Source: an uncultured Verrucomicrobiota bacterium (GTDB lineage: Bacteria > Verrucomicrobiota > Kiritimatiellia > RFP12 > UBA1067). From it: a stretch of 64,000 nucleotides of DNA. The stretch spans positions 3,158 to 67,157 of the forward strand of contig CAMOCC010000004.1 of assembly GCA_946610035.1 (NCBI GenBank), in the 5' to 3' direction. Positions 18,194 through 43,167 of the stretch are shown one piece after another. The notes under the pieces were generated by a model. That model was not told the origin of the DNA and ran no database searches. It was given only the letters and a program-made list of their open reading frames with translations. Position 1 is the stretch's first letter, and each line of letters opens with the position of its first letter. The translations under genes were made by a program, and so were the position numbers.

Positions 18194-18269
18194 GCCAGGT
18201 TAGCACAGTTGGTAGTGCGGCTCATTCGTAATGAGCAGGTCGGGGGTTCGAGTCCCTTACCTGGCTCCA
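18194..18269 (+). tRNA. tRNA-Thr (anticodon CGT)
   Basis: Acceptor GCCAGGT/ACCTGGC, anticodon stem GCTCA/TGAGC with loop TTCGTAA, T-loop GGTTCGAGTCC, encoded CCA. Confidence 0.9.
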
Positions 18270-18273
18270 AGTT

Positions 18274-18351
18274 GGCGGGAGTAGATCAATTGGTTAGATC
18301 AACAGATTGTGATTCTGTGGGTTGCGGGTTCGAGTCCCGTCTCCTGCCCCA
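18274..18351 (+). tRNA. tRNA-His (anticodon GTG) with extra 5' G
   Basis: G(-1) plus acceptor GCGGGAG/CTCCTGC, anticodon stem ACAGA/TCTGT with loop TTGTGAT, T-loop GGTTCGAGTCC, CCA. Confidence 0.85.
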
Positions 18352-28283: not shown

Positions 28284-28367
28284 CAAGACGGTGCGCCCAT
28301 CCGCATCCGTGCGACAGCGGCAGGAAGTACAAGAAGCGCTGCGGGAGGAGCGCTTGAGGAGGATGGT

Positions 28368-28892
28368 GTGAACTACGCCAGTATCAGGACGTGCGACATC
28401 GCGAACGGAGAGGGGGTCCGGGTCTCCCTCTTCGTTTCCGGCTGCACCCACAAGTGCAAGGGGTGCTTCAACGAGGAGGCGCAGAGTTTCGCCTACGGAC
28501 ATCCCTTCACCAAGGAGGTGGAGGACCGGCTCCTCGAAGCGCTGGCGCCGGACTACATCGCGGGGCTCACGCTCCTCGGCGGCGAGCCGATGGAGCCTGA
28601 GAACCAGCGCGGGCTCATCGGCTTTCTGCGCCGGTTCCGCGAGATGTACGCCGGGAAGAAGACGCTCTGGATATACACTGGCTGCATCTACGAACTCGAC
28701 TTGCTGCCGCCGACCGGCGACGCCCTGGGCATGGAGGTCAACTCCCCGCACAAGAAGTGGCGCACGGAGGTGACGGACGAGATTCTCGCCATGACGGACG
28801 TCCTCGTGGACGGTCCCTTCGTCGAGTCTCTCAAGGACATTTCGCTCCGCTTTCGCGGCAGTTCCAACCAGCGGTTGCTGAAACTTCATTGA
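28368..28892 (+). CDS. nrdG: Anaerobic ribonucleotide reductase activating protein (radical SAM)
   Basis: GEGVRVSLFVSGCTHKCKGCFN cluster motif; GTG start; follows nrdD. Confidence 0.9.
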   Translation: MNYASIRTCDIANGEGVRVSLFVSGCTHKCKGCFNEEAQSFAYGHPFTKEVEDRLLEALAPDYIAGLTLLGGEPMEPENQRGLIGFLRRFREMYAGKKTLWIYTGCIYELDLLPPTGDALGMEVNSPHKKWRTEVTDEILAMTDVLVDGPFVESLKDISLRFRGSSNQRLLKLH

Positions 28893-28910
28893 CGGAAGGG
28901 CCGACAGAGC

Positions 28911-29741
28911 ATGATGTCTCTTTTCGAAGGCAGGAAGGTCGGTCTTGCGCTTGGCGTCGGCGGGGCCCGCGGAGCGGCCCACCTCGGCGTGATGCGCGCC
29001 CTCAACCGACATGGAATCAAGATACATTGCGTTGCGGGTTCCAGCAGCGGATCCATCTTCGGCGCCATTGTCGCCGCAGGATGCGTCGACAGGGCCGAGG
29101 AGTATTTCAAGACCCTCTCCCGATGGAAGGCGTGGCGGATGATGTTCGAGCTGAGGCTTCCGCTCGGGGGCGGACTCATCACAGGCAAGCACATCGACAA
29201 GATGCTCCGCGACATCGTCCCGTACACACGCTTCGACGAGCTTAAGATGCCGTTCGCGGCGGTGGTGACCGACCTTTACTCCGGCGACGAGGTCGTCCTG
29301 CGCGACGGCGACCTCCTGAGCGCGGTAAAGGCGAGCTATTCCGTCCCGGGCCTCTTCACCCCGGTGCTGCGCGACGGACGCTGGATTGTGGACGGCGGAC
29401 TCGTGAATGCGATACCGGTGGCGGCGTGCAGGGATATGGGGGCGGACATCGTGATCGGCGTCGACGTGAACCTCGGCAAGAACTTCGCCCGCCACAAGCA
29501 GCAGCCTACGGAGAAGAGCCCCTCGTTCGCACAGGTGTTCGTCCGCGTCTGCAAGATCATAGAGAAGAAGTGGACTCAGAACGTCCTTCTTACGGATCGC
29601 CCGGAGATCCTCATCCAGCCGTCCGTCGGCAACATAATCTCGTCCCGCATCCGCCACATCAACTTCGCCATCCGCGCCGGAGAGGTCGCCGCCGAGCGGG
29701 CCCTGCGCGAATACGCGGGGATTCCGCTCGTCGACGCGTAA
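28911..29741 (+). CDS. Patatin-like phospholipase
   Basis: GVGGARG oxyanion motif, GSSSG serine lipase motif, DGG aspartate motif. Confidence 0.85.
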   Translation: MMSLFEGRKVGLALGVGGARGAAHLGVMRALNRHGIKIHCVAGSSSGSIFGAIVAAGCVDRAEEYFKTLSRWKAWRMMFELRLPLGGGLITGKHIDKMLRDIVPYTRFDELKMPFAAVVTDLYSGDEVVLRDGDLLSAVKASYSVPGLFTPVLRDGRWIVDGGLVNAIPVAACRDMGADIVIGVDVNLGKNFARHKQQPTEKSPSFAQVFVRVCKIIEKKWTQNVLLTDRPEILIQPSVGNIISSRIRHINFAIRAGEVAAERALREYAGIPLVDA

Positions 29742-29751
29742 GCCTCGTCCG

Positions 29752-30405
29752 CTACTTCCGCTTGGATTTGGAGCCGGAGTGTCCGTGCTCGCGCCTCGGC
29801 TCGCTAGAACGCCTCGCGGTGTCGTTCGACCGCCTTGGTTCGCCATGCCGACTCTGGATTGACGCCTTTCTTCCCGGCGTGGGCCTATTGACGGACGGCC
29901 GTGTCGACGGGCGATTGCGGTTCGGCTCCCTGCGCTCAATGTGTCCCTTGCTCGGGGGCTGCGCCGTCGGCTTGTGGTCCGGTTTGGAATGTACCGTCGG
30001 CTTGTGGTCCGGCTTGGGGTGTGCAATCGTTACGGGCTTGGGCGGCGGAGGAGGCATGCGCCGCACCTCTTTCTTTTTGCTGTGACGATGCTTGTCATGG
30101 TGTTTGTCGTGGTGCGAACGCCCCAGCGAGGCTTCAATGTAGATGTCCGGCTCGTCGTAGTACGTCTCGCTGACGTATGTCGGATGGACCGCGGCGTCGT
30201 ACACGGCATCATCGTATAAAACCGGCGATGTTACGACAGGTGTTTCGACAATAGGGGTGGAGACGACAGGGGTGGCGACCGCCGGGGTGTATGTCGCCGG
30301 GGAGTAGACTGAAGTACGGTATGCTCTGCCCATCGGTGAGAAGCATCCGGTCAAGGCCGTTCCTGCGATAGCCGCCGCCAATGCTCTAGTGAAGTTCTTG
30401 TTCAT
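29752..30405 (-). CDS. Hypothetical lipoprotein with basic His/Lys/Pro-rich C-terminal half
   Basis: Lipobox ..ALTGC; KPDHKPT duplicated; only minus-strand gene in this region. Confidence 0.55.
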   Translation of the reverse strand: MNKNFTRALAAAIAGTALTGCFSPMGRAYRTSVYSPATYTPAVATPVVSTPIVETPVVTSPVLYDDAVYDAAVHPTYVSETYYDEPDIYIEASLGRSHHDKHHDKHRHSKKKEVRRMPPPPPKPVTIAHPKPDHKPTVHSKPDHKPTAQPPSKGHIERREPNRNRPSTRPSVNRPTPGRKASIQSRHGEPRRSNDTARRSSEPRREHGHSGSKSKRK

Positions 30406-30567: not shown

Positions 30568-30576
30568 TGATATAAT
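30568..30576 (+). promoter_or_regulatory. Extended -10 promoter TGaTATAAT at the left edge of the island
   Basis: Exact TGnTATAAT 24 nt before the remnant ATG 30601; the only promoter-like element seen upstream of the 30763-41821 gene string. Confidence 0.45.
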
Positions 30577-30600
30577 GTCAATGTCTAATTGAGATCTGAG

Positions 30601-30760
30601 ATGTCAAAGATATTCGACAACATTGAGACGAAGTCTGAAGAGGGGCTGCATGCGATCCTGGCGAATGCCGGGGTTGAGCGCGCGGACTTCTGGTCGGGTA
30701 TTTCAACTTGCGCGGATGGAAGCAGGTTGCCGTGACGTATTTGACGAAATGAAGGGTATG
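30601..30760 (+). pseudogene. N-terminal remnant of a PLD-domain/SNF2-type helicase gene (frameshifted, truncated)
   Basis: MSKIFDNIETKSEEGLHAILANAGVERADF then a frame change. The +1 frame reads GYFNLRGWKQVA, which continues the N-terminal signature remembered for this family; similarity is lost after ~30735. Confidence 0.45.
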
Positions 30761-30762
30761 AC

Positions 30763-33700
30763 ATGAGTATTACCGACTATCTGAAGAAGATTCGTGACAA
30801 TGCCTGGAATACGGCGCAGCTCGGACGGGAGTTTGAGAAGTTCGTCAAGAAGTTCCTGTTGACTGAACCATCGTTCAAGTCGCAGTTCTCTGACGTGTGG
30901 CTGTGGAGCGAATGTCCGTTTGCGAATGGCAACGATGTCGGCATTGATCTTGTTGCAAAAAACTTCTTTGGCGAGTATGTGGCGATTCAGGCGAAGTGCT
31001 ATCAGCCGGGCACGCAAGTTGACAAGGCCGATGTCGATACATTCCTCTCGGCGTCGGGTAAGCAGATCGCGCCGGATGGCAAGGCGACCTTTTACTCCAA
31101 TCGCATCATTATCGCAACCAACGACAATTGGACGAGTCATGCGTCCGAGGCGATTGTCGATCAGCAGATCCCTGTCACGCGCATTGGACTCAATCAGATC
31201 CAGAATGCCGCGATAGACTGGGATAAGTTCTTCAAGGGCGAGAAGAAGGTCGTCGTCAAGAAGGAGCTCCGCAAGCATCAGGATGCCGCACTGAAGGATG
31301 TGGTCGAAGGTTTCAAGAAAGCCGACCGAGGGCAGCTCATTATGGCTTGCGGTACGGGCAAGACCTATACCTCGCTCAAGATCGCAGAAAAGCTTTGCCC
31401 AAAGGATGGCAGCGTTCTTTTCCTTGTTCCGTCTATCTCGCTTCTAGGGCAGTCCCTTCGCGAGTGGTGCGAACAGGCGGAGTCGCCTTTGACTGCGTTT
31501 GCCGTCTGCTCGGATGCGAAGGTGACGAAAGACCCGGATGACACCTCGCTCGCCGACCTCGGCTTTCCCGCGACCACATCTGCCGCGCAGCTTGTCGGCT
31601 ATGGCAAGAAGCTCAAGAAGAATCCGCCGAAGGGATTGACTGTCGTATTCTCCACCTACCAGTCAATCTCAGCCGTCCACGAGGCGCAGGAAGCGGGTGC
31701 GTTCGGCAAGTTCGATCTGATCATCTGCGACGAGGCGCACCGCACAACGGGCGCGATCTTCAAGGGACGCGAAGAGTCCGAGTTTGTCCGCGTCCATGAT
31801 GCCAAGTTCATCAAGGGCGTGAAGCGTCTCTACATGACGGCAACGCCGCGCATCTACGGCGAGAACGCCAAGAAGAAAGCAGATGACGAATTCATCGAGC
31901 TTTGCTCCATGGACGATGAGTCCAAGTACGGACGTGAATTCCATCACCTGACGTTTGCGCAGGCAGTCAAGGAGGAGCTGCTGACCGATTACAAGGTGTT
32001 GATCCTTGCCGTGGACGAGAAGGACATGCGCGAACTCCATCTTGCAGATCGCGATGGTGACGGTGAGATAGATTCGGTCGATCAGCTGGCGAAGATCGTT
32101 GGCACGTGGAAGGGGCTCAACAAGCAGATCTACAAGGATGACGAGAAGTTTCTTGGCAACGATTTTTCGCCGATGCGCTCGGCCGTTGCGTTCTCGTCCA
32201 CCATCGCGGACTCCAAGTCTTTCACGGGGCAGTTCAATGCTGTCATTGACGAACACTTTGGCGAGGACGAGAAGTTGCAGCCGGTGGCAATCAATCACGT
32301 TGACGGTGGCATGAACGCACTCTATCGCTCGCGCATGATCGAGTGGTTGCGCGAGGCGAACGAGGAAACGGGATGCCGTATCCTGTCCAATGCCAAGTGC
32401 CTTTCGGAAGGTGTCGATGTCCCCGGGCTGGACGCGGTGATCTTCCTCTCGCCCAAGAACAGCTTTGTCGAGGTCGTTCAGGCCATTGGGCGCGTCATGC
32501 GCAAGGCGCCGGGCAAGCAGCTCGGTTATGTCATCATCCCCGTGTTGATTCCGATGGGGATGGATGCGTCGGAGGCGCTTTCGACCAATAAGCGGTTCAA
32601 GGTCATTTGGGATGTCCTCTCGGCGATTCGTTCGCATGATGAGGCGTTTAACGCGCTTGACAACAAGGTGGACATCATCCGCGTCAAGCCTCCGAAGAAG
32701 CGCAAGCCAAATGTCGGTCCGGGGCCTGGCAATCCTGACGCTGATGATCCCGACGGCGAGGAAGATCCGCCGATTATAATCGACGCCGAACGCTTCAACG
32801 AATACAAGAAGGCGATACAGGCGAAGCTCGTCAAGGCGTGTGGCGAGCACAAGTACTGGAGCGTCTGGGCCGCGGAGATTGCCGATATCGTCCAGACGCA
32901 GATCAAGCGCATCACGGCGCTTTTGAAGGACGAGAAAGGGCCCTACGAAAAGGACTTCTCGAAGTTCCATGCCACGCTGAAATCGAATCTCAACAACACG
33001 GTGACGCGGGATGAGGCGATTGCGATGCTGGCGCAGCAGCTGGTGTCAGCGCCGATTTTCGACGCCCTTTTCTCGGACTACCAGTTCATCCGCAACAACC
33101 CGATTTCCAAATCGCTCGAAAAGTTGCTGGCTCGTCTCAACGAGAACATTGACAAGAAGGATCGCGAGACGCTTGACCGCTTCTACGAGTCGGTGCGCCA
33201 CAAGGCGAGCGACAAGACGACCGCCGCGCAGAAGCAGCAGATCGTCGTACAGCTCTATAACAACTTCTTCAATATCGCGTTCAAGGACACGGTCGAGAAG
33301 CTGGGCATTGTCTATACGCCGGTTCCGGTGGTGGACTTCATCGTGAAGTCGGTGGAGCGCGTCCTCAACAGGCATTTCAAGGCGTCGATTTCGGATAAGG
33401 GCGTCCATATCATCGATCCCTTTACGGGAACAGGTACGTTCATCACGCGCCTCCTGCAGTCGGGCATCATCAAACCGAAGGACTTGCTCTACAAGTACAC
33501 CCACGAGATTCACGCGAACGAAATCGTCCTCCTCGCCTACTACATCGCGGCAATCAACATCGAGTCGGTCTTCCATGACCAGATTGCCGACGGCAAGTTC
33601 CATCCGTTTGACGGCATCGTGTTGACCGATACCTTCCAGCTGGGAGAGAATTCAGATGACTTGCCGGGTATCTTTCCCGAAAACTCCGAACGTGCTGCCA

Positions 33701-34128
33701 AGCAGAAGAAGCTGGACATCCGCGTGGTGATGGGCAACCCGCCGTATAATGTCTCAAAGGGGACAAGTTACCCGAATTTGGAACGACGCATTGCCGAGAC
33801 GTATGCGCAGGGGACTGATGCGGTGAACAAGAATTCACTTTACGATTCCTACATCAAGGCATTCCGCTGGGCGTCTGATCGCATCAAGGATCGTGGAGTG
33901 GTGGCGTTCGTCACGAACGGCGGCTGGCTCGATGCTCAGGCGATGGACGGTTTCCGCAATTCGCTTGTGAAGGAATTCGACCACATCTATGTTTTCAACC
34001 TTCGCGGTAACCAGAGAACACAAGGAGAGGTTTCACGTCGTGAAGGAGGGAAGATATTTGGGTCGGGTTCGCGTACGCCTGTCGCAATTACGATCCTTGT
34101 GAAGACGGGGGGGGGGCGAAATGAATAA
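30763..34128 (+). CDS. Type ISP-like restriction-modification protein, N-terminal part: Mrr-like nuclease + SF2 helicase/translocase + N6-adenine MTase core
   Basis: GIDLVAK..AIQAKCY nuclease-like motif; GTGKT (31351-31365); DEAH (31729-31740); DPFTGTGTF motif I (~33411-33440); NPPY (33736-33747). Confidence 0.85.
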   Translation: MSITDYLKKIRDNAWNTAQLGREFEKFVKKFLLTEPSFKSQFSDVWLWSECPFANGNDVGIDLVAKNFFGEYVAIQAKCYQPGTQVDKADVDTFLSASGKQIAPDGKATFYSNRIIIATNDNWTSHASEAIVDQQIPVTRIGLNQIQNAAIDWDKFFKGEKKVVVKKELRKHQDAALKDVVEGFKKADRGQLIMACGTGKTYTSLKIAEKLCPKDGSVLFLVPSISLLGQSLREWCEQAESPLTAFAVCSDAKVTKDPDDTSLADLGFPATTSAAQLVGYGKKLKKNPPKGLTVVFSTYQSISAVHEAQEAGAFGKFDLIICDEAHRTTGAIFKGREESEFVRVHDAKFIKGVKRLYMTATPRIYGENAKKKADDEFIELCSMDDESKYGREFHHLTFAQAVKEELLTDYKVLILAVDEKDMRELHLADRDGDGEIDSVDQLAKIVGTWKGLNKQIYKDDEKFLGNDFSPMRSAVAFSSTIADSKSFTGQFNAVIDEHFGEDEKLQPVAINHVDGGMNALYRSRMIEWLREANEETGCRILSNAKCLSEGVDVPGLDAVIFLSPKNSFVEVVQAIGRVMRKAPGKQLGYVIIPVLIPMGMDASEALSTNKRFKVIWDVLSAIRSHDEAFNALDNKVDIIRVKPPKKRKPNVGPGPGNPDADDPDGEEDPPIIIDAERFNEYKKAIQAKLVKACGEHKYWSVWAAEIADIVQTQIKRITALLKDEKGPYEKDFSKFHATLKSNLNNTVTRDEAIAMLAQQLVSAPIFDALFSDYQFIRNNPISKSLEKLLARLNENIDKKDRETLDRFYESVRHKASDKTTAAQKQQIVVQLYNNFFNIAFKDTVEKLGIVYTPVPVVDFIVKSVERVLNRHFKASISDKGVHIIDPFTGTGTFITRLLQSGIIKPKDLLYKYTHEIHANEIVLLAYYIAAINIESVFHDQIADGKFHPFDGIVLTDTFQLGENSDDLPGIFPENSERAAKQKKLDIRVVMGNPPYNVSKGTSYPNLERRIAETYAQGTDAVNKNSLYDSYIKAFRWASDRIKDRGVVAFVTNGGWLDAQAMDGFRNSLVKEFDHIYVFNLRGNQRTQGEVSRREGGKIFGSGSRTPVAITILVKTGGGRNE
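34107..34116. repeat. Homopolymeric G10 tract 5 nt upstream of the nested-gene ATG
   Basis: Read directly; encodes GGG at the C-terminus of ORF 30763-34128. Confidence 0.95.
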
Positions 34129-35317
34129 TGATTCAAAACAGCGCAGTGCCGCACTTGGCATTGTCGCCGCCGTCCGCGAAATCAAGGCGGCGATTCTCAG
34201 GACGCGCTACATGGCGGCGCGTCTGGCGAACGCGGAAATGCTCAAACTGTACTTTGGAACAGGTGCGTACGTTTCGGTGAATTCACGTAAAGGAAAGTGG
34301 GGGACCGGGGCAATCGCCGAGATTTCCTCAAGGCTTCAGCAGGAGTTGCCGGGGCTGAAGGGTTTCTCGGAAAGTTCAATCAAAAGGATGCGACGTTTTT
34401 TTGAGGTGTGGTGTCCGGAGGCAATTCGTCAATCGGTGATTGACGAATTGGCGACTGACAGTAGTTTGCCCATGGCAAATCGCCCATCGGCAATGGGCGA
34501 TTTGTCGGGAAACGCCGTCCTTATGGTTGCAGATTCCGAATTTCGCCCATCGACAATGGGCGAAATGTCGGAAGCGGACTTTGCATGCTTTTGCGCTGTA
34601 CCATTCACGCAACACACGGTGTTATTCGAGAAATGCAAGCAGCCAGAAGAGATGTGGTACTACATTCGGCGTGCGGCTACTGAGTTTTGGAGCGTGACCG
34701 CGTTGAAGACGCATATAAGAGCAGGGGACTACAGGCGGCGAGGCAAACTGCCCAACAATTTCGCGCTGACGATTCCCGCGCCGGAACTTGCCGTGAGGGC
34801 GGCAAGGATGTTCTCGGACGAGGTGTTCCTTGAGGGCATCAACGTCGGTGAAGACGAAGGAGACGTCGACGAGAGGCTGCTGGAGCATGAGATCGTAGCA
34901 AACATACGCAAATTCATGATGTCGCTCGGACCGGACTTCTGCTTCATGGGCGAGCAGTTCCGCGTCATAGTGCAGGACGAGGAGCAGTTTATCGATCTTC
35001 TGTTCTACAATCGAGCGCTGAAGTGCCTGATTGCCCTTGAGCTGAAGGGCGGGAAGTTCAAGCCTGCGTACCTTGGACAGCTTAACTTCTATCTGTCCGC
35101 GCTCGATGACAAGGTGAAGAGACCCGACGAGAATGCGTCCATCGGGATTGTCCTGTGTCGCGAGGCGAACAGGGGTTTTGTGGAGATGGCGATCCGCGAC
35201 ATGACGAAGCCAATGGGTGTCGCCGTGTTCCGAAGTGACAAAAGGGTACCCAGGGCCTATCGCCAGCTGGAGCCAATGCTCAAGGGGCTGACAGAGATTA
35301 TGGAGGACCGGTCATGA
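34121..35317 (+). CDS. YhcG/DUF1016-family PD-(D/E)xK nuclease-like protein nested inside the R-M gene
   Basis: ..EEMWYYIRRAATEFWSV..L...I.., C-terminal ..IDLLFYNRALKCLIALELKGGKFKPAYLGQLNFYL.. core typical of DUF1016. Confidence 0.8.
   Translation: MNNDSKQRSAALGIVAAVREIKAAILRTRYMAARLANAEMLKLYFGTGAYVSVNSRKGKWGTGAIAEISSRLQQELPGLKGFSESSIKRMRRFFEVWCPEAIRQSVIDELATDSSLPMANRPSAMGDLSGNAVLMVADSEFRPSTMGEMSEADFACFCAVPFTQHTVLFEKCKQPEEMWYYIRRAATEFWSVTALKTHIRAGDYRRRGKLPNNFALTIPAPELAVRAARMFSDEVFLEGINVGEDEGDVDERLLEHEIVANIRKFMMSLGPDFCFMGEQFRVIVQDEEQFIDLLFYNRALKCLIALELKGGKFKPAYLGQLNFYLSALDDKVKRPDENASIGIVLCREANRGFVEMAIRDMTKPMGVAVFRSDKRVPRAYRQLEPMLKGLTEIMEDRS
34477..34566. repeat. Two 27-bp perfect palindromes (AAATCGCCCAT-CGGCA-ATGGGCGATTT at 34477-34503; ATTTCGCCCAT-CGACA-ATGGGCGAAAT at 34540-34566)
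   Basis: Read directly; outer positions differ between the copies but change in a compensatory way. Confidence 0.9.
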
Positions 35318-36921
35318 GCGCGACAATCCATTATCACGACATCGGCGATTACTTGAGCCGCGAGGAGAAGCTGAAGATCATCGACGACTTCGGCGACATT
35401 TCGGGCATTGAATGGCAGGCGCTTACCCCGGACAAACACGGCGACTGGCTCAACAAGCGCGACAGCGAATTCGACGACTACATCCCGCTCGCGCCGGAAG
35501 AGAAGTTCGACTATCTCTCGAAGAGTTGGTTCACGGTCAATTCATCGGGACTCAAAACTGGAATGGACGACACCGCAACCGGCTATTCGAGACAATGCGT
35601 ACTTGATGCGGTCAAGAAAAAGATTGGCCATTCAGAAAAGCCTAAAACCGTCGAGTATTCCTATCGCCCGTTCAACAAGCAGTGGCTCTACTACGACCGT
35701 GAGACGAACCAACGCCAATACCGCATACCCAATATCTTCCCGCTCGGCGACTCTGCGTCTCTGCGCGAGAAAAAATACCCTAACAAGGTGATATGCGTTA
35801 CAGGCGCTGGCGGTTCTAAAGACTTTTCATGCATCATCACTGACGTGATTCCCGACCTTCATTTCTGCGGCGACGTTCAGGCCTTCCCCTTGTATTGGTA
35901 TGAGGAAATCAAAGCCGATACATCTGTGATGGAACTGCCGGGGCTTGAAAAGCAGAGTGGCTACATCAAGCACGATGCGATCAGCGATTTCATCTTGTTG
36001 GAGTTTCGCAAGATTGCCGGGCCGAGGGTGCAGAAGGAGGACATCTTCAACTATGTCTATGGCGCATTGCACAATCCCGATTACCGCGCCAAATTCGCCG
36101 CGGACTTGAAGAAGCAACTGCCGCGGTTGCCGCTCCCGAAGAATCGCAGGGAATTCGAGAAGATCGAGAAAATCGGACGCGAACTTGCGAACCTTCACTT
36201 GCACTACGAGGAAATCGATCCGTGGCCGCTTGATGAAATTGCCGCGGGCAATATTGATTATCGTGTGGAGAAGATGGCGTGGGCGAAGGACGGCAAGACA
36301 GTCCGCAAGGACATGCTCGTTGTGAATCCGTCGCTCACTCTTACGAGCATCCCGAAGGAAGCGCACGAGTATGTGGTCAATGGCCGTACGCCGCTTGAAT
36401 GGTTGATTGAACGGTATCAGGTTTCCATCCATGCCGAGTCTGGTATCAAGAACGATCCGAACAAGTGGGGAGAGGAACATAATTACCCCGAGTATATCGT
36501 CGAGTTGGTGAAGCGCATTGTCCGGCTGAGTGTCGAGACCGTGCGTTTGGTCTGTGAACTTGGCGACGGCAAGAAGGCTGCCGCGAAAGATACTACACGG
36601 GCACATCCGAGCGCCACGCCGCCGTATTGGTGGAAGTCCGGCAAGTGGGGCGTCGCTTCGCCAATGCCGGAGGGCGGTCATGTCGTCATGGGCCTCAAGC
36701 ACAAATGGTACGACAAGATAGAGGCAGGGCTTAAGCACGAAGAGCAGCGAGAGGTCAAGCCATTCTGGGATGCGAAGCTTGCCGGGCGCAAAGGCAAGGA
36801 GCTCCGCGCCGTGACCTTCATGAAGGGCCAGGCCTCCACGGAGCAAATGACCTGGGAAGTCCTCCGCGTCGATCTCCGCGGCAACTACTACTGCCTCGAA
36901 CTCGGCAAGAGGATTGCGTAA
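35314..36921 (+). CDS. Detached Type ISP/IIG C-terminal specificity (TRD) module fused to an ASCH-like domain
   Basis: YRPFNKQWLYYD, FPLYWY, LHNPDYRAKFAADLKKQLPRLPLP, LHLHYE, EYVVNGRTPLEWL motifs; tail MGLKHKWYDKIEAGLKHEEQRE.. resembles the ASCH/PUA-like fold. Confidence 0.75.
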   Translation: MSATIHYHDIGDYLSREEKLKIIDDFGDISGIEWQALTPDKHGDWLNKRDSEFDDYIPLAPEEKFDYLSKSWFTVNSSGLKTGMDDTATGYSRQCVLDAVKKKIGHSEKPKTVEYSYRPFNKQWLYYDRETNQRQYRIPNIFPLGDSASLREKKYPNKVICVTGAGGSKDFSCIITDVIPDLHFCGDVQAFPLYWYEEIKADTSVMELPGLEKQSGYIKHDAISDFILLEFRKIAGPRVQKEDIFNYVYGALHNPDYRAKFAADLKKQLPRLPLPKNRREFEKIEKIGRELANLHLHYEEIDPWPLDEIAAGNIDYRVEKMAWAKDGKTVRKDMLVVNPSLTLTSIPKEAHEYVVNGRTPLEWLIERYQVSIHAESGIKNDPNKWGEEHNYPEYIVELVKRIVRLSVETVRLVCELGDGKKAAAKDTTRAHPSATPPYWWKSGKWGVASPMPEGGHVVMGLKHKWYDKIEAGLKHEEQREVKPFWDAKLAGRKGKELRAVTFMKGQASTEQMTWEVLRVDLRGNYYCLELGKRIA

Positions 36922-36943
36922 AGTTATCTGAAAGGAGTAAGTC

Positions 36944-39900
36944 ATGAAAATTCTGTCGAACGAGCCAATCGGGAAAGATTTGTTTGAGGGACAATCTCAA
37001 GAACGAATCGCGGATTTGATTTTTAAGAGCTTGGAAGCGGCTCGGAACCCTGGCGATGCTGATGTTCGTATTTCCGGTAATTCAGTTGTGGGGATTGAAG
37101 GTGGTTGGGGATGTGGAAAGAGCAATGTGCTAAAGATATTAGAGACTAAGCTAGATAAGGTGTTGGAAGATAAGAAAAAGGTCTACAGTGTTTTTCTGTA
37201 TGATTTATGGGGAAGGCAGCAGGATTTGCAACGGAAGATCATTCTGCAAGATTTGGCTGCACACTTGAAAAACAAATGCCATATTGATAAGGATAAAGAA
37301 GTACGCGAATTGATTATTAAGAAAACAGAGGTGGGGAAAGAGTTTGTAAAGAAGGGCTTGATTGCGCGATTGCTTCCTGTGGTGTTGAGCGGATTTGTGA
37401 CGGTATTCTTGGCGACGGCGGCATTGAGTAAAGAGGATTGCTGGATGCGAGGTGTCTCGGGATGGTTGGCGCTGAGTGTTGGAGTTGTTGTTTGTGTTTG
37501 TGGGTTGGTGGGAGTTTTGAAATATAAAGATGATGCGTTTGCTGCCATTACGGAGTTCTTGGGCAACATGTTGCTGATTAAGACGAATGGGGCAGAATTG
37601 CCACGTATGATGTATGAGCACCAATACAGCGTAACGGTTTCAGACTTCTCAAAATTATTGACGGAAATCGCAAACGAGTTAGTGGCGAAGGGAAAACATC
37701 TAGTTGTTGTGTTTGATAACATCGATCGGCTGCCAATTGACAAGGTGAAGGAGTTTCTGTCGTCTGCTCATATTTTGTTTGCAGAGCGAAAGGAGACGAT
37801 GTTGACAAATATTCATATCATTATCCCGTTTGATAGAAATAGAATTCTTGCTGCGTTTGAAGGGCAAGATGGTAATGATTATATTAACAAGACATTTGAT
37901 GTGGTCTATCGGGTGGCACCTCCTATCCTAAAGGACTGGGAAAAGTTCTTTCTGGAGATGTATAAAGAGGCAACTGATGATGAACCAGCTCTGCTTGAAC
38001 AGCGTCTTGAAGTTCAAGATGTTTTCAATGTCTTGTCATCATCCCGAGATTTAACGCCGCGGGCAATCATTGCATTTTTGAATTCGATTACGGCTTCTCA
38101 TAATGTTCTTGGAGATAGTGTGCCTATAAAGGCAATTGCGGTGTATGAGCTTGCCTGGAAGCCGTATGAGCAGAAGATGGTTCTTGATAAGGATGAGGCA
38201 AGCAAACCTGAAGCATCGGAACTTAATGAAACGCGGATTAGAAAAGGGTTGTTTATTCCGAATAAGTTGCTTCGAACAAAATATTTGGGCGATGAGAACT
38301 GGCAGAAATGGATGGCTGCTATTGTATTTCAAGTTGAGGCGACACGAGCTGGGGAGATTCTAAATTATAATTTGTTACAGGATGCATTGGAGAATGGCAA
38401 GAGTGATGTTGTTTCGACGATGAGCGATTTGTCGAGTTTTCGGTTGCTGTTTGACAGGGCGCTTAAGGCGGTCCGTAATCCGCAAAATATCCCTACGGCA
38501 ATTCATGACGTGATTGGAGACAATAAGGAGTGGTGCTGGGACAGAGTGAATGAAGTTCGAGGTGCGGATATCGCAGCCGTGAGGAGTTTGTTTCCCGATT
38601 TAGACGAGTGGCATAAGGATATGCTAAAGAATGTAAGTGATTGGCATGGGTATGCGAGTGTTCTTTTGCAGCGAAACAAGCCAATTAAAGAACGAGGTGT
38701 AACTAAGGTCTTGTTTGCGCAAGCCCGTAATGTTGATGATGTTCTGAAAGAGGTTGGACGATCATTGGTCGGGGCGTTTCCGGCTGAAGATGTTGAGCCA
38801 GCACAGTATCTTGAATTGTTGAATGAGGCAAAGGAGCGAGCGTGTGTGCTTGGTTGGAAGTGTGGTGTTGGACAATTTGACAAGTATGTTGTCGGATTGA
38901 TGCAGGCTGGTGGCGGTGGGGCGGCTGGAGCAGCATATGTTCCTGATGATATGATCCCTGGGATGACGCAAACAAAGCAAGCGTTTGAGGGTGTCAGACA
39001 AGTTGGAGATCCCCATGTCACTAATGTAGATTCCGTATTAAAGGTTATAGAACATTTAAGCGAAGGGCGAATCAAGACGGCTCTTGAAAGTCCTTATGTA
39101 TCTGAGTTTGTCAGAGGAAGGCATGTGGCGGATGAGGAGCGTTGTCGTGCGGTTGCCGCGGCTATACGTGGTGGCGTGAGCGTGGAGAATGGTGTGCCAT
39201 TGTTCGAATTCCTGACTGATACAAAGTCAATTCAGCATGCAAAACAATTGGCTGATTTTTTCACCAAATATGTTAGCGAGGAGACATTGCTTGAAAAATT
39301 GGCGGCTAATGCACATTATCCTGTTTATGTGGAGGCGACGAAGCTTCTGTTAATGAAATCAAGGGCAAAGCTGGATCAAAGCAAAGTCGAGATGCTTCTT
39401 GAAGTTTTTGGGATGGCAGTTCAAACGCTTGGCATTGATCCGCAAATTTTGTTGGAACGAATGCCGGAGCTTCCGAAGATTGAGACGGCGAAGCATGAAA
39501 AGTGTTTTAATCATCAGACATTGTCTCAGTTAAAGAAGTGTGGTGGTTCAGTGTGGAATTTCGCGGTCCAATCGGTTAAGGCGAATTTTGACGCCTTTGA
39601 TAAAAATACTTGGATCACGAAATTATCCTCTCCGACTCCGCGATGGACTCCTCGGGCGGCTGTGGATGTCGATTATGCTTGGACTCCCTTGGCTTTAGAA
39701 AGCGCAAAAGATGTTTTGTGCATGGTTGCTACTGGCAAGATCCAAGATGACAAGCTCCCCTCTTCGGAGACGTGGAGCATGATAGTTAGTGATTTTGAAA
39801 GTAAACATGTTGGCGTAGGGGAATGGTTCAAAGATGTAAAAGACCAAATAATTGCCTTCTCTGGCACTATAACAGCTAAGGCATTTGCCTTCCTTGCTCC

Positions 39901-40150
39901 ATGGCTGTTTAAATATGCTTCGTTTGGAGTGAATAAAGATGAGTTGCGTAAGTTGCTTCCTGACGCGACTGTTCGCAAGAACGAAGCTTGCAAGAAGATT
40001 ATGGCAGAGAATAAGGACGCCGTGATGCAAATGTTTAACAAGGGCGATGCGGCAACGCAAGATGCTTTTAGGGCATATGTCACTGCGGAACTTAATGCTC
40101 ATCCTGATTCTCCCTTGTCGGTATTTAAAGAATTCTTGGGCGGCAAATAA
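36944..40150 (+). CDS. KAP-family P-loop NTPase with two TM helices inserted in the NTPase domain; long uncharacterised C-terminal region
   Basis: Walker A GIEGGWGCGKSN; TM pair ..LLPVVLSGFVTVFLATAAL.. / ..WLALSVGVVVCVCGLVGVL..; Walker B LVVVFDNIDRL. Confidence 0.8.
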   Translation: MKILSNEPIGKDLFEGQSQERIADLIFKSLEAARNPGDADVRISGNSVVGIEGGWGCGKSNVLKILETKLDKVLEDKKKVYSVFLYDLWGRQQDLQRKIILQDLAAHLKNKCHIDKDKEVRELIIKKTEVGKEFVKKGLIARLLPVVLSGFVTVFLATAALSKEDCWMRGVSGWLALSVGVVVCVCGLVGVLKYKDDAFAAITEFLGNMLLIKTNGAELPRMMYEHQYSVTVSDFSKLLTEIANELVAKGKHLVVVFDNIDRLPIDKVKEFLSSAHILFAERKETMLTNIHIIIPFDRNRILAAFEGQDGNDYINKTFDVVYRVAPPILKDWEKFFLEMYKEATDDEPALLEQRLEVQDVFNVLSSSRDLTPRAIIAFLNSITASHNVLGDSVPIKAIAVYELAWKPYEQKMVLDKDEASKPEASELNETRIRKGLFIPNKLLRTKYLGDENWQKWMAAIVFQVEATRAGEILNYNLLQDALENGKSDVVSTMSDLSSFRLLFDRALKAVRNPQNIPTAIHDVIGDNKEWCWDRVNEVRGADIAAVRSLFPDLDEWHKDMLKNVSDWHGYASVLLQRNKPIKERGVTKVLFAQARNVDDVLKEVGRSLVGAFPAEDVEPAQYLELLNEAKERACVLGWKCGVGQFDKYVVGLMQAGGGGAAGAAYVPDDMIPGMTQTKQAFEGVRQVGDPHVTNVDSVLKVIEHLSEGRIKTALESPYVSEFVRGRHVADEERCRAVAAAIRGGVSVENGVPLFEFLTDTKSIQHAKQLADFFTKYVSEETLLEKLAANAHYPVYVEATKLLLMKSRAKLDQSKVEMLLEVFGMAVQTLGIDPQILLERMPELPKIETAKHEKCFNHQTLSQLKKCGGSVWNFAVQSVKANFDAFDKNTWITKLSSPTPRWTPRAAVDVDYAWTPLALESAKDVLCMVATGKIQDDKLPSSETWSMIVSDFESKHVGVGEWFKDVKDQIIAFSGTITAKAFAFLAPWLFKYASFGVNKDELRKLLPDATVRKNEACKKIMAENKDAVMQMFNKGDAATQDAFRAYVTAELNAHPDSPLSVFKEFLGGK

Positions 40151-40171
40151 CTCAAAAGTAGGGAGGGGAGT

Positions 40172-41821
40172 ATGTCCGAACGTATTCAGATGATAACACA
40201 TTGGAAGGTGGTGAACCTTATCAATGAACTCGAAAACGGAAATCTGCGCATTCCGCGGTTTCAGCGGGCCTATGTGTGGGAGCCATCCAAGGTCGTCAAA
40301 TTACTGAACAGCATGTACAAGGAATATCCAATCGGGACATTCTTCCTTTGGGAAACGGATAGAGGCATGGAATGCTTTTGCCGAAAGGTTCCGCATTTGG
40401 ATCTTCCTGACAGGCCCGAAGCGGGAAGGTTCTCGTTTATTCTTGATGGCCAGCAGAGAATTACGTCTCTCTACGTTGGGCTTAAGGGCAAAGTCATTGA
40501 GACGAGGGACTATTCAAAGATTTGTTTCAATCTCGACAAAAAGGAATTCAGGATTCCTCGTCCTCGGCCTGAGGCGGGAGACATTCCTGTCTATAAACTA
40601 TATGACGCAACGGAATCCCAGAAACTCGTTGCAGAATACAGTACAACCGGACGAGCCAGTGATGTTCCCGAAATTATCAATTGCAGTACATTGCTGCGAC
40701 AATATCCGTTGAGCGTAATCAAGTCTCTCAACATGACGCTCGATGAAGTTGTGGAAATCTTCGAGCGCATCAATCAGGGCGGCAAGCGATTGTCGCTTTT
40801 TGATCTTGTCCATGCTTCGGTTTGGTCTGAGGATTTCGATCTGCGGGAGAAGATAGAGGAAGTCAATGCCGAACCCGCGATTAAGCTTTTCGGCGAAATC
40901 GGCGCGGAGATTTTCACGCAATCGCTTGCGCTGAATATTTCAAATGATTGCACAAACCGACATCAGTTGGAGTTGACCAATCAGGATTGCCGCACACATT
41001 GGAAGCGCACGGTGGAGTGTATCAGGCTCGCCGTTGATTTCATAAAGAACTTCGGCGTTCAGCAAATGGCGATTATCCCATATCCTAGTTTGTTGGCAAT
41101 CGTCCAGCACTACTTCTTTGTGGCGGATAAGGATGTGATTGTACAAGATGACAAGGCGTTGATTTCTGATTGGTTCTGGACAGCGACGTTCTCGCAGCGG
41201 TATTCGAGCTCGACTTTGTCGCGGATGAACGAGGACGCCGTTTGGATACGAGACCTCATCGGCGGGAATAAGACACCGCGTGTCTTCGCGGTTAAACTGA
41301 CCCTGTCCGATTTGCGCAAGGCGCGGATGAATCAGCGTTCTGTGATTAAGAATGGCGTATTGTGCATAATGGCTATGAATGCGCCGGTTGATTTTGACAA
41401 TGGCGATGTTGTTACGTTAGATAAGACGAATGCTTCGCGTGCGAACTCCAAGGAGAACCATCACTTCTTCCCGTATTCGCTTTATGGAGAATTCGCGCTC
41501 ACGAAGAACGACATCAATTCTGTCTTGAACTTTGCATTCATTTCAAAGAGACTTAATGGCGAAATTCTCAACAAGAAACCATCGGTGTATTTGGCCAAAT
41601 ATGAGGCGGCCAATCCTCGGATCGGTGATAATCTGATGCTTCATTACATTACGTCAGATGCATTTGCTGCGGCGAAGCGCGATGACTTCGAAACCTTTGT
41701 CAGCATTCGCGGCACAAGCTTATTAAACAAGATAGAGGAGCTTTGTCGCGTGAATGACAATGTTGAGACTCTTTCTGCCGCAACGATTGATGTGGACGAT
41801 GATGCGGACGAGGAATCATAA
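40172..41821 (+). CDS. DUF262 (ParB-like NTPase) protein with C-terminal His-Me/HNH-like module (GmrSD-family, type IV restriction-like)
   Basis: LRIPRFQRAYVWEPSKVVKLLNSMYKEYPIGTFFLW (DUF262); C-terminal ..KENHHFFPYS...NSVLNFAFISKRLNGEILNKKP. Confidence 0.75.
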   Translation: MSERIQMITHWKVVNLINELENGNLRIPRFQRAYVWEPSKVVKLLNSMYKEYPIGTFFLWETDRGMECFCRKVPHLDLPDRPEAGRFSFILDGQQRITSLYVGLKGKVIETRDYSKICFNLDKKEFRIPRPRPEAGDIPVYKLYDATESQKLVAEYSTTGRASDVPEIINCSTLLRQYPLSVIKSLNMTLDEVVEIFERINQGGKRLSLFDLVHASVWSEDFDLREKIEEVNAEPAIKLFGEIGAEIFTQSLALNISNDCTNRHQLELTNQDCRTHWKRTVECIRLAVDFIKNFGVQQMAIIPYPSLLAIVQHYFFVADKDVIVQDDKALISDWFWTATFSQRYSSSTLSRMNEDAVWIRDLIGGNKTPRVFAVKLTLSDLRKARMNQRSVIKNGVLCIMAMNAPVDFDNGDVVTLDKTNASRANSKENHHFFPYSLYGEFALTKNDINSVLNFAFISKRLNGEILNKKPSVYLAKYEAANPRIGDNLMLHYITSDAFAAAKRDDFETFVSIRGTSLLNKIEELCRVNDNVETLSAATIDVDDDADEES

Positions 41822-41833
41822 ATATTTTGGCAT

Positions 41834-42145
41834 ATGGCAGACAGAGATGACATATTAAAGGAGCGGCAAGAGCAGGAGTATCTTGGCATCTGGTGGATTC
41901 CCGGTGACGACGCCGAGCAGCGCAATGTCTCTGGGGTCATGCGAATTGCCGAGGGCGAAAAACTGGATCTGTAACTCTTGGGCACCTTTTCGCCGGGCGA
42001 AAGGCAATTTGCCTTTGAGAATTATCCTGTCGTCAATGGCGCAAGTCATGGGTTAAAGCGATTTACAATGTTCGATGTGTCGGTTGTGGGTCGGGAATCT
42101 AACGGATCGGAACCTGCAGAATTGGACGAAACCAAGCTTTGGTGA
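41834..42145 (+). pseudogene. Remnant of an ApeA-like N-terminal domain gene, interrupted by an in-frame TAA (41972-41974) and truncated
   Basis: Own translation: ..YLGIWWIPGDDAEQRNVSGVMRIAEGEKLDL*LLGTFSPGE..YPVVNGASHGLKRFTMFDVSVVG..; the pattern resembles ApeA-type NTDs; no HEPN part follows. Confidence 0.35.
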
Positions 42146-42148
42146 ATA

Positions 42149-42412
42149 TTGACCAAACCAACCGCGGCTAATGTCTTGAGGATGTATTCACTCTTTGGCT
42201 TGGATCAAAGTTTCTCACGGCTGCAAGTGGTCAAGGAAATGCCCATGAAGCGTGCTGCTGCATGGAAGTTTCTCGCGAAGCTGCACAAACTCGGTTTGAC
42301 GGAGCCAGTGCTAGGTGAGGGACGTGGGCATAACGGCATCACAAGGGTCGCGCCCTGGCGCAAGGCCGGGGGCGGCCTTGCCACATCATGCGGCGCGGTA
42401 AAAAAAACGTAA
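42149..42412 (+). pseudogene. Probable orphan winged-helix C-terminal fragment
   Basis: ..FSRLQVVKEMPMKRAAAWKFLAKLHKLGLTEPVLGEGRG.. looks like the wHTH tail of larger regulatory or defence ATPases; TTG start, no SD, ends in A8/A10 runs. Confidence 0.25.
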
Positions 42413-42705
42413 AAAAAAAACGTAGTGACTTTTCGTCCGAATTATGGTTTACTATGTGACATATCGCGAGGAATTGTGTAACCTTTTCCGCGCGATGTGT
42501 ATACAGGGCAGAAACGGCTTCGACGCATACAACAGGAGGCAAGACCATGTCTGTCAATCTAGACAGTGCGCAGTTCAGGCAGTTCGTGCAGTTCGCCGAA
42601 CGCCAGGCAAACCCCGCTAACAGCGAAGCTCACGGACGTCCATTTCGGACAGACCGTCGAAGCGCCCGTGTTGAAAGACAAGGTCAACGTAGGCTACGTC
42701 AGAGT

Positions 42706-43167
42706 ATGATGAAGAGATTGGTGTTCATCGTCGCTGCGGCGACGGCGTGTGTGCTGCTGTCCGTCCTGCGGCAGGGGGAGGTCCGGGAGGCGCCCGCGGC
42801 GACGGCGGAGGAGCGCGGCGGCGCGTCCGCGCCGTGGAAGGCGGGCGGGGCGACATGCTTCTTCGCCGACTTCAGAAGCGGGTCGTGGGTCGAGGGGGAC
42901 GGCGTCGTCAAGAAGGTCCTTCCGGACGACACGACGCCGCCATGTCATCAGCGGCTGCTGGTGGCCGACCCGACGGGGCGCACCGTTCTCATCGCCCACA
43001 ACATCGATTCGTGGGGGTGCTTGAAGGACGTGAAGGCGGGCGACAGGGTCGCCTTCAGGGGCGAGTTCATCGACAACGAGCGGGGCGGAGTCGTCCATTG
43101 GACGCATCCCGATCCGCGCGGACGCAAGCCCGGCGGCGGCGGGTGGCTCAGGAAGGTCGGCCGATAA
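42706..43167 (+). CDS. DUF3465-family secreted protein
   Basis: Signal-anchor MMKRLVFIVAAATACVLL; ..CHQRLLVADPTGRTVLIAHNID....GDRVAFRGEFIDNERGGVVHWTH. Confidence 0.65.
   Translation: MMKRLVFIVAAATACVLLSVLRQGEVREAPAATAEERGGASAPWKAGGATCFFADFRSGSWVEGDGVVKKVLPDDTTPPCHQRLLVADPTGRTVLIAHNIDSWGCLKDVKAGDRVAFRGEFIDNERGGVVHWTHPDPRGRKPGGGGWLRKVGR

Follow-up and report, generated by a model that had tools for sequence, protein, structure and literature searches.

The window analysed here, a stretch of 64,000 nucleotides from contig CAMOCC010000004.1 of an uncultured Verrucomicrobiota bacterium (assembly GCA_946610035.1), contains five plus-strand open reading frames (ORFs) that fill positions 30763-41821 downstream of one TGnTATAAT. 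We read this block as a mosaic Kiritimatiellia defence islet of exchangeable modules, probably transcribed from one leader promoter and arranged around a Type ISP restriction-modification (R-M) enzyme that is split by a swappable guest gene, and we put the probability of this reading at roughly 0.78. The enzyme would be encoded by g1 (30763-34128, 1121 amino acids (aa); Mrr_cat_2, ResIII/Helicase_C, ISP_coupler and N6_Mtase in Pfam) together with g3 (35314-36921, 535 aa; Type_ISP_C), and the guest by g2, which lies between them (34121-35317, 398 aa; DUF1016_N and YhcG_C); g4 (36944-40150, 1068 aa; KAP_NTPase) and g5 (40172-41821, 549 aa; GmrSD_N) complete the block. A preliminary description of the sequence had named these genes and their defence theme correctly, as Pfam and PADLOC bear out, and had further proposed that all five act as one composite unit, a proposal that the comparison of related loci does not support.

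A probable Type ISP enzyme in two chains

Judged from their sequences, g1 and g3 are the two halves of one Type ISP R-M enzyme that is normally a single chain. g1 aligns with residues 32-1147 of LlaBIII (PDB 4xqk; E 4e-281), and g3 with residues 1155-1572 of the same enzyme as well as with residues 991-1400 of LlaGI; since the two together cover LlaBIII 32-1147 and 1155-1572, the split loses nothing. On the PADLOC profile REase_MTase_IIG (1646 positions) g1 spans positions 3-1163 and g3 positions 1318-1641. g1 represents the N-terminal 70% of a Type ISP enzyme without the target-recognition domain (TRD) and contains the Mrr-family nuclease (Mrr_cat_2 at residues 34-162, E 7e-39), the superfamily 2 (SF2) ATPase with coupler (ResIII, Helicase_C and ISP_coupler, the last with E 9e-41) and the gamma-class N6-adenine methyltransferase (MTase) with NPPY (N6_Mtase/Eco57I domains) that are expected of the type, the motifs GTGKT197, DEAH323, DPFTGTG885 and NPPY992 all being intact. 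The expected TRD is present too, in g3 instead of g1 (Type_ISP_C, E 1.5e-82). Domain order and motifs are the same as in LlaBIII and the mechanism is presumably the same; however, what is a single polypeptide in Type ISP enzymes consists here of two ORFs around a foreign gene of 1.2 kb, the 1197-nt g2. The enzyme would work like a Type ISP enzyme and yet be a non-canonical member of the type because it is split. The split point is the short, variable linker between MTase and TRD, past the last MTase element and ahead of the conserved IHYHDIGDY.

In the mechanism that we propose, g3 would contribute the target-recognition domain and g1 everything else, from the Mrr nuclease and the SF2 translocase to the coupler and the N6-adenine methyltransferase. 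The two chains may reassemble in trans, as HsdM binds HsdS, by way of the MTase-TRD clamp known from LlaGI and LlaBIII (PMC4872093). By analogy with these two enzymes, the complex would methylate host sites and cleave unmethylated DNA after translocation and collision (for the Type ISP mechanism see PMC3553950 and PMC4872093).

Both ISP ORFs are intact in all fully covered split loci. In a handful of pairwise comparisons, split-versus-split pairs included, the ratio of non-synonymous to synonymous substitution rates (dN/dS) was 0.07-0.11 for g1 and 0.10-0.17 for g3, values of about 0.1 which suggest that both halves are under purifying selection. For g2, g4 and g5 the ratio was 0.05-0.25.

g3 differs from the corresponding part of LlaBIII in two respects. 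Its TRD (residues 1 to ~418) is without ~45 residues that align to LlaBIII 1256-1300 and overlap the three-helix 'jaw' subdomain (at ~105-116 of g3), a deletion shared with P0011 (locus L094), most relatives retaining the segment. It is followed by an extra, lineage-specific C-terminal domain of ~110 aa (residues 421-535, positions 36574-36921), which occurs only in Kiritimatiellia-type TRD proteins and carries the invariant sequence PPYWWKSG...KWYDKIE.G.K...R. The suggestion that this domain is an ASCH domain was confirmed neither by Pfam, PDB profile and NCBIfam searches nor by AlphaFold2 (AF2) modelling with Foldseek or by hhalign. There was no Pfam match at E<=1 and no PDB profile match; the AF2 model reached a predicted local distance difference test score (pLDDT) of only 59 and a best Foldseek TM-score of 0.38, to YTH domains and with non-significant E-values; and hhalign against E. 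coli YqfB returned a probability of 4%. The sole match was to phrog_625 (E 8.5e-8), a family of uncharacterised function.

At its 3' end g1 carries a G10 homopolymer (34107-34116, plus strand) where relatives read GGGGGAGAAGG (11 nt). Relatives at least 90% identical to g1 end in VKTGEKAK, the window g1 in VKTGGGRNE; the tract shifts the stop 4 nt downstream and converts the usual ATGA overlap into one of 8 nt. Among 16 cluster members it is found only in this assembly, and it may be an assembly artefact, a private mutation or a slippage-prone tract. A G9 variant would join g1 in frame to the DUF1016 gene.

The MTase-TRD linker as a slot for cargo genes

Standalone TRD proteins (~460-570 aa) are numerous in the protein database and all start at the same residue. 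They make up 81 of the 101 classifiable top matches, the start residue of g3 being conserved across these 81; as this set of matches is biased, ISP loci were sampled directly. The best 80 genome loci and the best 80 metagenome loci, mostly metagenome-assembled genomes (MAGs) or metagenome contigs, gave 154 informative cases. The gene was an uninterrupted single ORF in 143 of them, and 11, distributed across phyla, had a gene-sized insert exactly at the MTase-TRD linker (~7%, a frequency among the top-ranked hits of two scans and not an exhaustive census). Elsewhere in the N-terminal part (3.4 kb), not one of the 154 had a gene-sized insert. That part contains just two other insertions, of ~420-460 nt (L012 440-864, and L173; at MTase residue ~939 and helicase residue ~311), both smaller than any gene of linker-insert size.

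What occupies the linker varies widely. In the scanned loci, combined with closer relatives fetched by protein look-up and with families assigned by Pfam, the cargo is DUF1016 (the window, L093 and L051, and L001 with its nuclease core deleted), Fic (L091, L094/95, L096/97 and L098), RhuM (L040), SLFN_AlbA_2 with HATPase_c_4 (L044, L100), a Gp49-HTH (helix-turn-helix) toxin-antitoxin pair (L127), a PIN-like protein (L049), ORF6N with a PLD-like protein (L142), a multi-gene insert with DUF3800 and a SIR2-like gene (L165) or a 23S_rRNA_IVP-like/Zn-ribbon protein (L003). All cargo ORFs read out between the halves lie on the ISP strand, and most are ATGA-coupled or separated by short gaps. g2 thus belongs with R-M-embedded accessory genes, being a co-directional gene between core R-M functions at a position where the cargo differs from locus to locus. 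The position is fixed very precisely: in sister loci Fic and DUF1016 share the junction ...GCGAAATGA / ATGAGCGCG... to the nucleotide. The left junction in Kiritimatiellia reads ...GTGAAGACGGGGGAGAAGGCGAAATGA, with the ATG of the cargo inside the final ATGA, and at the right junction the cargo stop abuts or overlaps ATGAGCGCGACAATCCATTATCAC.

Sister loci contain Fic, another protein or nothing in the linker; a fused enzyme occurs in L002, where identity to g1 over the N-terminal part is 86%. A neighbour-joining tree of TRDs, a rough distance tree on a variable domain, places split and fused forms among one another, and one standalone TRD shares 90% identity with the C-terminus of a fused enzyme of 1634 aa from Parabacteroides sp. 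ZJ-118. The interleaving and the occurrence of both forms at 90% identity indicate that the state has switched many times, and they rule out one ancestral split event. In a tblastn search of plasmids for a split form in a cultured strain, the best 40 of 189 records are mostly annotated 'type ISP restriction/modification enzyme', and the one locus inspected, on Leptospira p74, is fused; cluster look-ups linked none of the split forms to a named isolate.

The guest in the window, g2, matches PADLOC PDC-S02 (E 3e-103) and has DUF1016_N and YhcG_C with the D...E-x-K nuclease signature of DUF1016/YhcG proteins (IDLLF...ELK307). By these features it is a DUF1016/YhcG PD-(D/E)XK nuclease gene that occupies the MTase-TRD slot as cargo; a PDB sequence search with g2 gave nothing useful. 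In our model it sits as a second module in the variable linker, where it would be translationally coupled on both sides, and cargo would be swapped by homologous recombination, both via the conserved flanks and inside the cargo gene itself.

Evidence for such exchange comes from a DUF1016 gene in an altogether different backbone. In the Type III system of L186-L188 a DUF1016 gene (L186 8001-9215) lies, ATGA-coupled, between mod (N6_N4_Mtase) and res (ResIII), and its product is 97.7% identical to residues 13-396 of g2; at the DNA level identity is 94.2% over window positions 34156-35307. This homology begins 35 nt into the g2 ORF and stops 10 nt before its stop codon, and the flanks of the Type III copy share nothing with the window; no search for flanking repeats was made. 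Within ISP loci, the N-terminal half of L093 is 99% identical to g1, yet between the L093 DUF1016 and g2 identity drops to 85%. The difference was located by a sliding comparison. The ends of g2 (the first and last ~240 aligned nt; columns 1-240 and ~960-1239) match the L093 ISP allele at 92-100%, both alleles matching about equally in columns 121-240 and 961-1140, whereas over the 360 nt at the centre identity is 93-100% to the Type III allele (at least 97% in seven of eight 60-nt windows) and only 50-82% to the L093 allele. g2 is therefore a two-allele recombinant, which shows that cargo alleles in different R-M types exchange by homologous recombination and, as a mosaic of ISP and Type III alleles, points to a pool of accessory genes that R-M systems of different types have in common as embedded cargo. 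We reject the idea of a discrete mobile DUF1016 element with ends of its own, as the Type III homology lies inside the ORF and g2 is recombinant. Alleles differ most in the centre of the gene (34360-34720; columns 241-600), the part that separates DUF1016_N from the nuclease domain, and this hypervariable stretch is a candidate for a swapped specificity or sensor segment.

But does the guest merely lodge in the enzyme, or does it work with it? The two ISP halves could keep the cargo inactive until an anti-restriction protein of a phage knocks out the enzyme, and then release it as a nuclease or toxin, in the manner of PrrC within the EcoprrI Type IC locus. Such a guardian would add a coupling of g1, g2 and g3 and is compatible with modular evolution. 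It would fit the invariable co-orientation and translational coupling of the cargo between the halves, a cargo pool that consists mostly of toxins and nucleases (Fic, RhuM, PIN, Gp49, Schlafen, DUF1016), and the nesting of the same DUF1016 in a Type III operon, by which it is consistently tied to R-M enzymes; DUF1016 and RhuM are, moreover, statistically enriched beside R-M specificity genes (PMC9881135), and PrrC and PARIS provide a precedent (PMC12707154). However, the cargo families are structurally unrelated, so that a common docking mechanism is unlikely, those embedded GmrSD-like genes that have been investigated act independently (PMC11411939; bioRxiv 10.1101/2024.01.29.577857), and the interaction of cargo and enzyme is hypothetical. 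In L001, furthermore, both ISP halves are intact around a 246-aa DUF1016 without nuclease core (1204-1944), which suggests that the split enzyme does not need an intact cargo. On balance we regard a guardian function of the cargo, attractive as it is, as unlikely, if less so than any other alternative to the mosaic reading.

Tentative as well, and in our estimate improbable, is the wider idea that the ISP MTase-TRD linker and the Type III mod-res junction are each a dedicated, selectable cargo dock with a built-in guardian, in which DUF1016 would serve as back-up nuclease. If this were true, effector expression and perhaps activity would be tied to the integrity of the restriction enzyme, the guardian would fire when anti-restriction proteins disable or disassemble the two-part enzyme, and the hypervariable DUF1016 centre would be the sensor.

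The KAP and GmrSD genes and the reassortment of modules

g4 has the defining features of KAP proteins, a P-loop (KAP_NTPase, E 4e-19; Walker A GGWGCGKS53) with putative transmembrane segments inserted in the NTPase domain, here two hydrophobic segments at ~141-162 and 173-193 that were located as Kyte-Doolittle peaks and not with a dedicated transmembrane predictor. PifA, QatA and PDC-S20 have the same arrangement, but PADLOC matches to them are weak (E 1e-11 to 5e-7) and confined to the Walker A region, and the QatBCD partners are absent from the island. Neither Pfam nor a PDB search detected a known domain in the C-terminal ~680 aa, and the PDB sequence search with g4 as a whole gave nothing useful. 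The family is small (49 matches of ~1050-1080 aa), and its members adjoin R-M genes in four of five unrelated contexts (L081-L092), which suggests an R-M-associated accessory role. Neighbours of the distant homologues include a ResIII/Eco57I protein, an HpaII R-M system upstream, HsdM-Fic downstream and Schlafen downstream; one KAP gene of the g4 family starts at the base directly past an HpaII-type Vsr-M-R-M cluster.

g5 has the N-terminal DUF262 domain of GmrSD proteins (GmrSD_N, E 1e-29, with DGQQR92), matches BrxU (PDB 7p9k) by sequence and matches PDC-M55C and HEC-05 in PADLOC. Its AF2 model (pLDDT 86) has BrxU over the full length as best PDB match in Foldseek (E 2e-14, 620 columns), followed by SspE and then DndI. 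g5 combines DUF262 and DGQQR with an invariant His-rich C-terminal motif and, like BrxU, sits beside a methylation-based system; identity in the structural alignment is, however, only ~16%, and Pfam DUF1524 is not detected in g5. The His-Me module that had been attributed to g5 accordingly lacks direct Pfam confirmation, and is indirectly favoured by the motif ENHHFFP...N...N (ENHHFFP428 in g5), which is invariant in 20 homologues, and by the full-length BrxU match of the model. Sequence and model together make g5 a BrxU-like GmrSD-family protein and a putative modification-dependent Type IV restriction enzyme.

Both genes are poorer in GC (0.445 for g4, 0.473 for g5) than g1, g2 and g3 (0.551, 0.547 and 0.544), which suggests acquisition of g4-g5 from a lower-GC donor. 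We propose that they form modules 3 and 4 in a second variable region, between the TRD gene and a truncated ApeA gene. The islet would then provide layered but separable defences, with the ISP enzyme directed against unmodified and GmrSD against modified DNA, and with DUF1016 and KAP as possible accessory or back-up effectors. That the ISP and GmrSD roles are complementary but separable is suggested by the way in which the pairing mirrors BREX with BrxU and Type I with TgvAB (PMC11411939).

The closest protein relatives are from Kiritimatiellia MAGs, and comparison of loci whose TRD is 78-92% identical or whose N-terminal half is 84-99% identical to that of the window shows the modules in changing company. 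The order behind the N-terminal half is Fic-TRD-KAP(83%)-GmrSD(98%)-intact ApeA in L091, DUF1016-TRD-HATPase_c_3-GmrSD(81%) in L093, and Fic-TRD-GmrSD(98%) without KAP in L096. In L094 Fic-TRD is followed by host genes, with neither KAP nor GmrSD, and in L001 the TRD gene is followed by four other genes and then an intact ApeA. The contig P0121 has a 99% identical KAP-GmrSD-ApeA fragment, and no same-strand gene fits into the 349 nt upstream of its KAP gene. Across these relatives the five components do not co-occur as a conserved set. Synonymous divergence (dS) tells the same story: between the window and L093 it is 0.06 for g1, 0.38 for g2, 0.35 for g3 and 0.50 for g5, an ~8-fold spread between modules, and between the window and L096 it is 0.51 for g1, 0.74 for g3 and 0.19 for g5. 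The subset of ISP N-terminal half, DUF1016 and TRD, which the preliminary description had singled out as a possible cassette, does recur, as g1 and g3 belong to a single split enzyme, a point that the description did not make. A KAP plus DUF262 cassette, likewise suggested there, recurs as well, but only within very close relatives.

This last pair might nevertheless be a dedicated two-gene Type IV system like TgvAB, independent of the remaining block. The 21-nt spacer is identical in the window and in L091, the same spacing is found in the P0121 contig, both genes are low in GC, and TgvAB is an example of a two-protein GmrSD-like system (PMC11411939). Yet L096 has a 98% identical GmrSD gene directly behind the TRD gene and no KAP, and L093 pairs an 81% identical GmrSD with HATPase_c_3. 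Further away, KAP homologues of 27-63% identity have other neighbours and never adjoin GmrSD, and GmrSD homologues of 57-60% identity either stand alone or come first in a Type I operon; the fold of g5, finally, matches BrxU, which works alone. We therefore think a dedicated KAP-GmrSD system improbable. A PDC-M55 pair in particular is ruled out, as g4 matches no PDC-M55 model. The Type I operon that begins with a g5-like GmrSD gene has a further guest between hsdS and hsdR, a gene for an AAA_14/DUF4143 ATPase (L178-L181 10958-12274); this ATPase recurs in other islands (L085 13713-15071) and appears to be a frequent embedded passenger.

PD-(D/E)XK homing endonucleases exist, and nearly identical DUF1016 genes occur in two unrelated R-M backbones, so that the ISP gene might also be seen as a pseudogene broken by a selfish homing-type DUF1016 nuclease gene. 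This is very improbable: both halves are intact with dN/dS of ~0.1 over split-split pairs, starts and stops are precisely coupled, many non-nuclease genes occupy the same slot, and the Type III homology lies within the ORF, with no mobile-element ends and with unshared flanks, albeit flanking repeats were not searched for. Least probable of all is one obligate composite system of all five proteins, as proposed in the preliminary description, for despite tight packing, a single apparent promoter and a common strand every module assorts independently in close relatives, which is the very outcome that the description had named as its refutation, and the discordant dS, the differing GC and the other partners of KAP and GmrSD homologues add to a comparative picture by which the proposal is largely refuted.

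The reading of the block as a mosaic islet has points against it, too. GmrSD stands behind the TRD gene in four of six lineage-related loci, and the 21-nt KAP-GmrSD spacer is kept in three contexts; as these arrangements recur, some functional linkage between neighbours is possible. In addition, the assembly of g1 with g3 and the activity of the genes are predictions, the operon structure is deduced from spacing, purifying selection from few pairs, the insert frequency from top-ranked hits and the switching between split and fused forms in part from a rough tree.

Island edges, related systems and implications

The packing of the five same-strand genes is as it had been described, with overlaps of 8 nt (g1/g2) and 4 nt (g2/g3) and gaps of 22 nt (g3/g4) and 21 nt (g4/g5), each gap containing a Shine-Dalgarno-like AAGGAG or GGGAGG. 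So is the composition: the block is richer in AT than its flanks (GC 0.623 on the left and 0.660 on the right), most of all in the last two genes. At the left edge lies the extended -10 promoter-like element TGATATAAT (30568-30576, plus strand, read directly), which appears as conserved TGGTATAAT in L093 and L096 and at which the nucleotide homology of the window to these loci starts. The proposed single promoter, together with tight coupling, is plausible, the operon status itself being deduced from spacing. No strong internal promoter or terminator was found, again in line with the earlier claim; the weak matches within the block are at chance level (13 promoter-like matches in a simple consensus scan against 9.5+/-3.1 expected, 12 terminator-like matches against 13.3+/-4.0).

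Between the promoter-like element and g1 lies a leader ORF of 44 codons (30601-30735, plus strand), which is kept upstream of g1 in L093, L096 and L097 (85% identity over 33 aa, tblastn) and may be either a leader peptide or what is left of an older gene. To the eye, the beginning of the ORF looks like the N-terminus of PLD-helicase proteins. On the right, a remnant of ApeA (a HEPN abortive-infection gene) extends over 41834-42144 on the plus strand. Its 46-aa ORF (41834-41974) is 93% identical to the N-terminus of the intact ApeA of 468/472 aa in L091/L001, with a weak ApeA_NTD1 match in Pfam, and DNA homology to the L091 gene reaches 42144 and then stops. Of the gene remnants that had been placed at both edges, the right one is a truncated ApeA, and the left one may be the 44-aa ORF, for which a Pfam scan gave no match.

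The island is bordered on the left by NrdD and a few uncharacterised ORFs, one of which, of 217 aa, has no Pfam domain match, and on the right by a DUF3465 gene and then HisS. As had been stated, no integrase, transposase or tRNA gene marks the edges: neither integrase nor transposase domains were found in the scanned neighbours (29752-30405, 42149-42412, 42547-43167, HisS and NrdD; the ORFs of 28283-29750 were not scanned), and no tRNA gene lies within 12 kb. A tRNA-Leu gene (108-189) and adjacent tRNA-Thr(CGT) and tRNA-His(GTG) genes (18194-18351) are a long way off and have no relation to the island. Two A-runs aaaaaaaacgtaaaaaaaaaacg occupy 42400-42420 (A10 at 42411-42420), where the low-GC block ends on the right and just before GC returns to the host level, and are a possible island boundary or insertion scar.

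Fic and Schlafen genes are also found in Type I loci, and HsdS is a separate specificity polypeptide. With PrrC in EcoprrI, TgvAB in a V. cholerae Type I locus, RloF and the Hma-embedded candidate HEC-05 (BrxU), the split ISP loci share a foreign, co-directional gene and a fixed site at which the cargo varies. The embedding of genes in R-M operons is well documented (PMC11411939, PMC9881135), and nested genes are known from Type I, BREX and Hma operons; DUF1016 genes are on record between the core genes of Type I systems, and DUF1016 and RhuM have been found enriched beside R-M specificity genes (PMC9881135). The embedded-gene systems thus share families with the block, namely DUF1016 and RhuM (PMC9881135) as well as GmrSD-like genes (PMC11411939; PMC9881135; bioRxiv 10.1101/2024.01.29.577857), and for BrxU, action independent of the neighbouring BREX genes has been reported (PMC12707154; bioRxiv 10.1101/2024.01.29.577857). 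Different from the PrrC/TgvAB type however, where the cargo lies between separate genes, g2 lies inside a normally single gene and turns a one-chain into a two-chain enzyme. A specificity part on a polypeptide of its own, as in g3, is known from the split PglX of some BREX loci (PMC9881135) and from Type I and BcgI-like S subunits, but those splits are not made by nested cargo at a conserved linker. In an incomplete literature library we found no account of cargo that splits Type ISP genes, of a hot spot at the MTase-TRD linker or of ISP and Type III operons exchanging DUF1016, which is absence of evidence only.

For annotation, the islet carries two warnings: pairs of a 'DEAD/DEAH helicase' and a 'hypothetical protein' can be split ISP systems, and genes stacked in one operon need not form one system. 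The uncharacterised DUF1016/YhcG family, a PADLOC candidate, is tied to two R-M types through near-identical copies, and this makes a functional test possible. Type ISP enzymes have been defined and studied structurally as single-chain machines. Our analysis suggests that a two-chain form is recurrent and selectively maintained. It would follow that the MTase-TRD clamp is able to form in trans, and the split form would be a natural route for the swapping of specificity modules. Its linker would be a precise hot spot for harvesting accessory defence genes, by which the discovery of embedded genes is extended from multi-gene operons into single genes.

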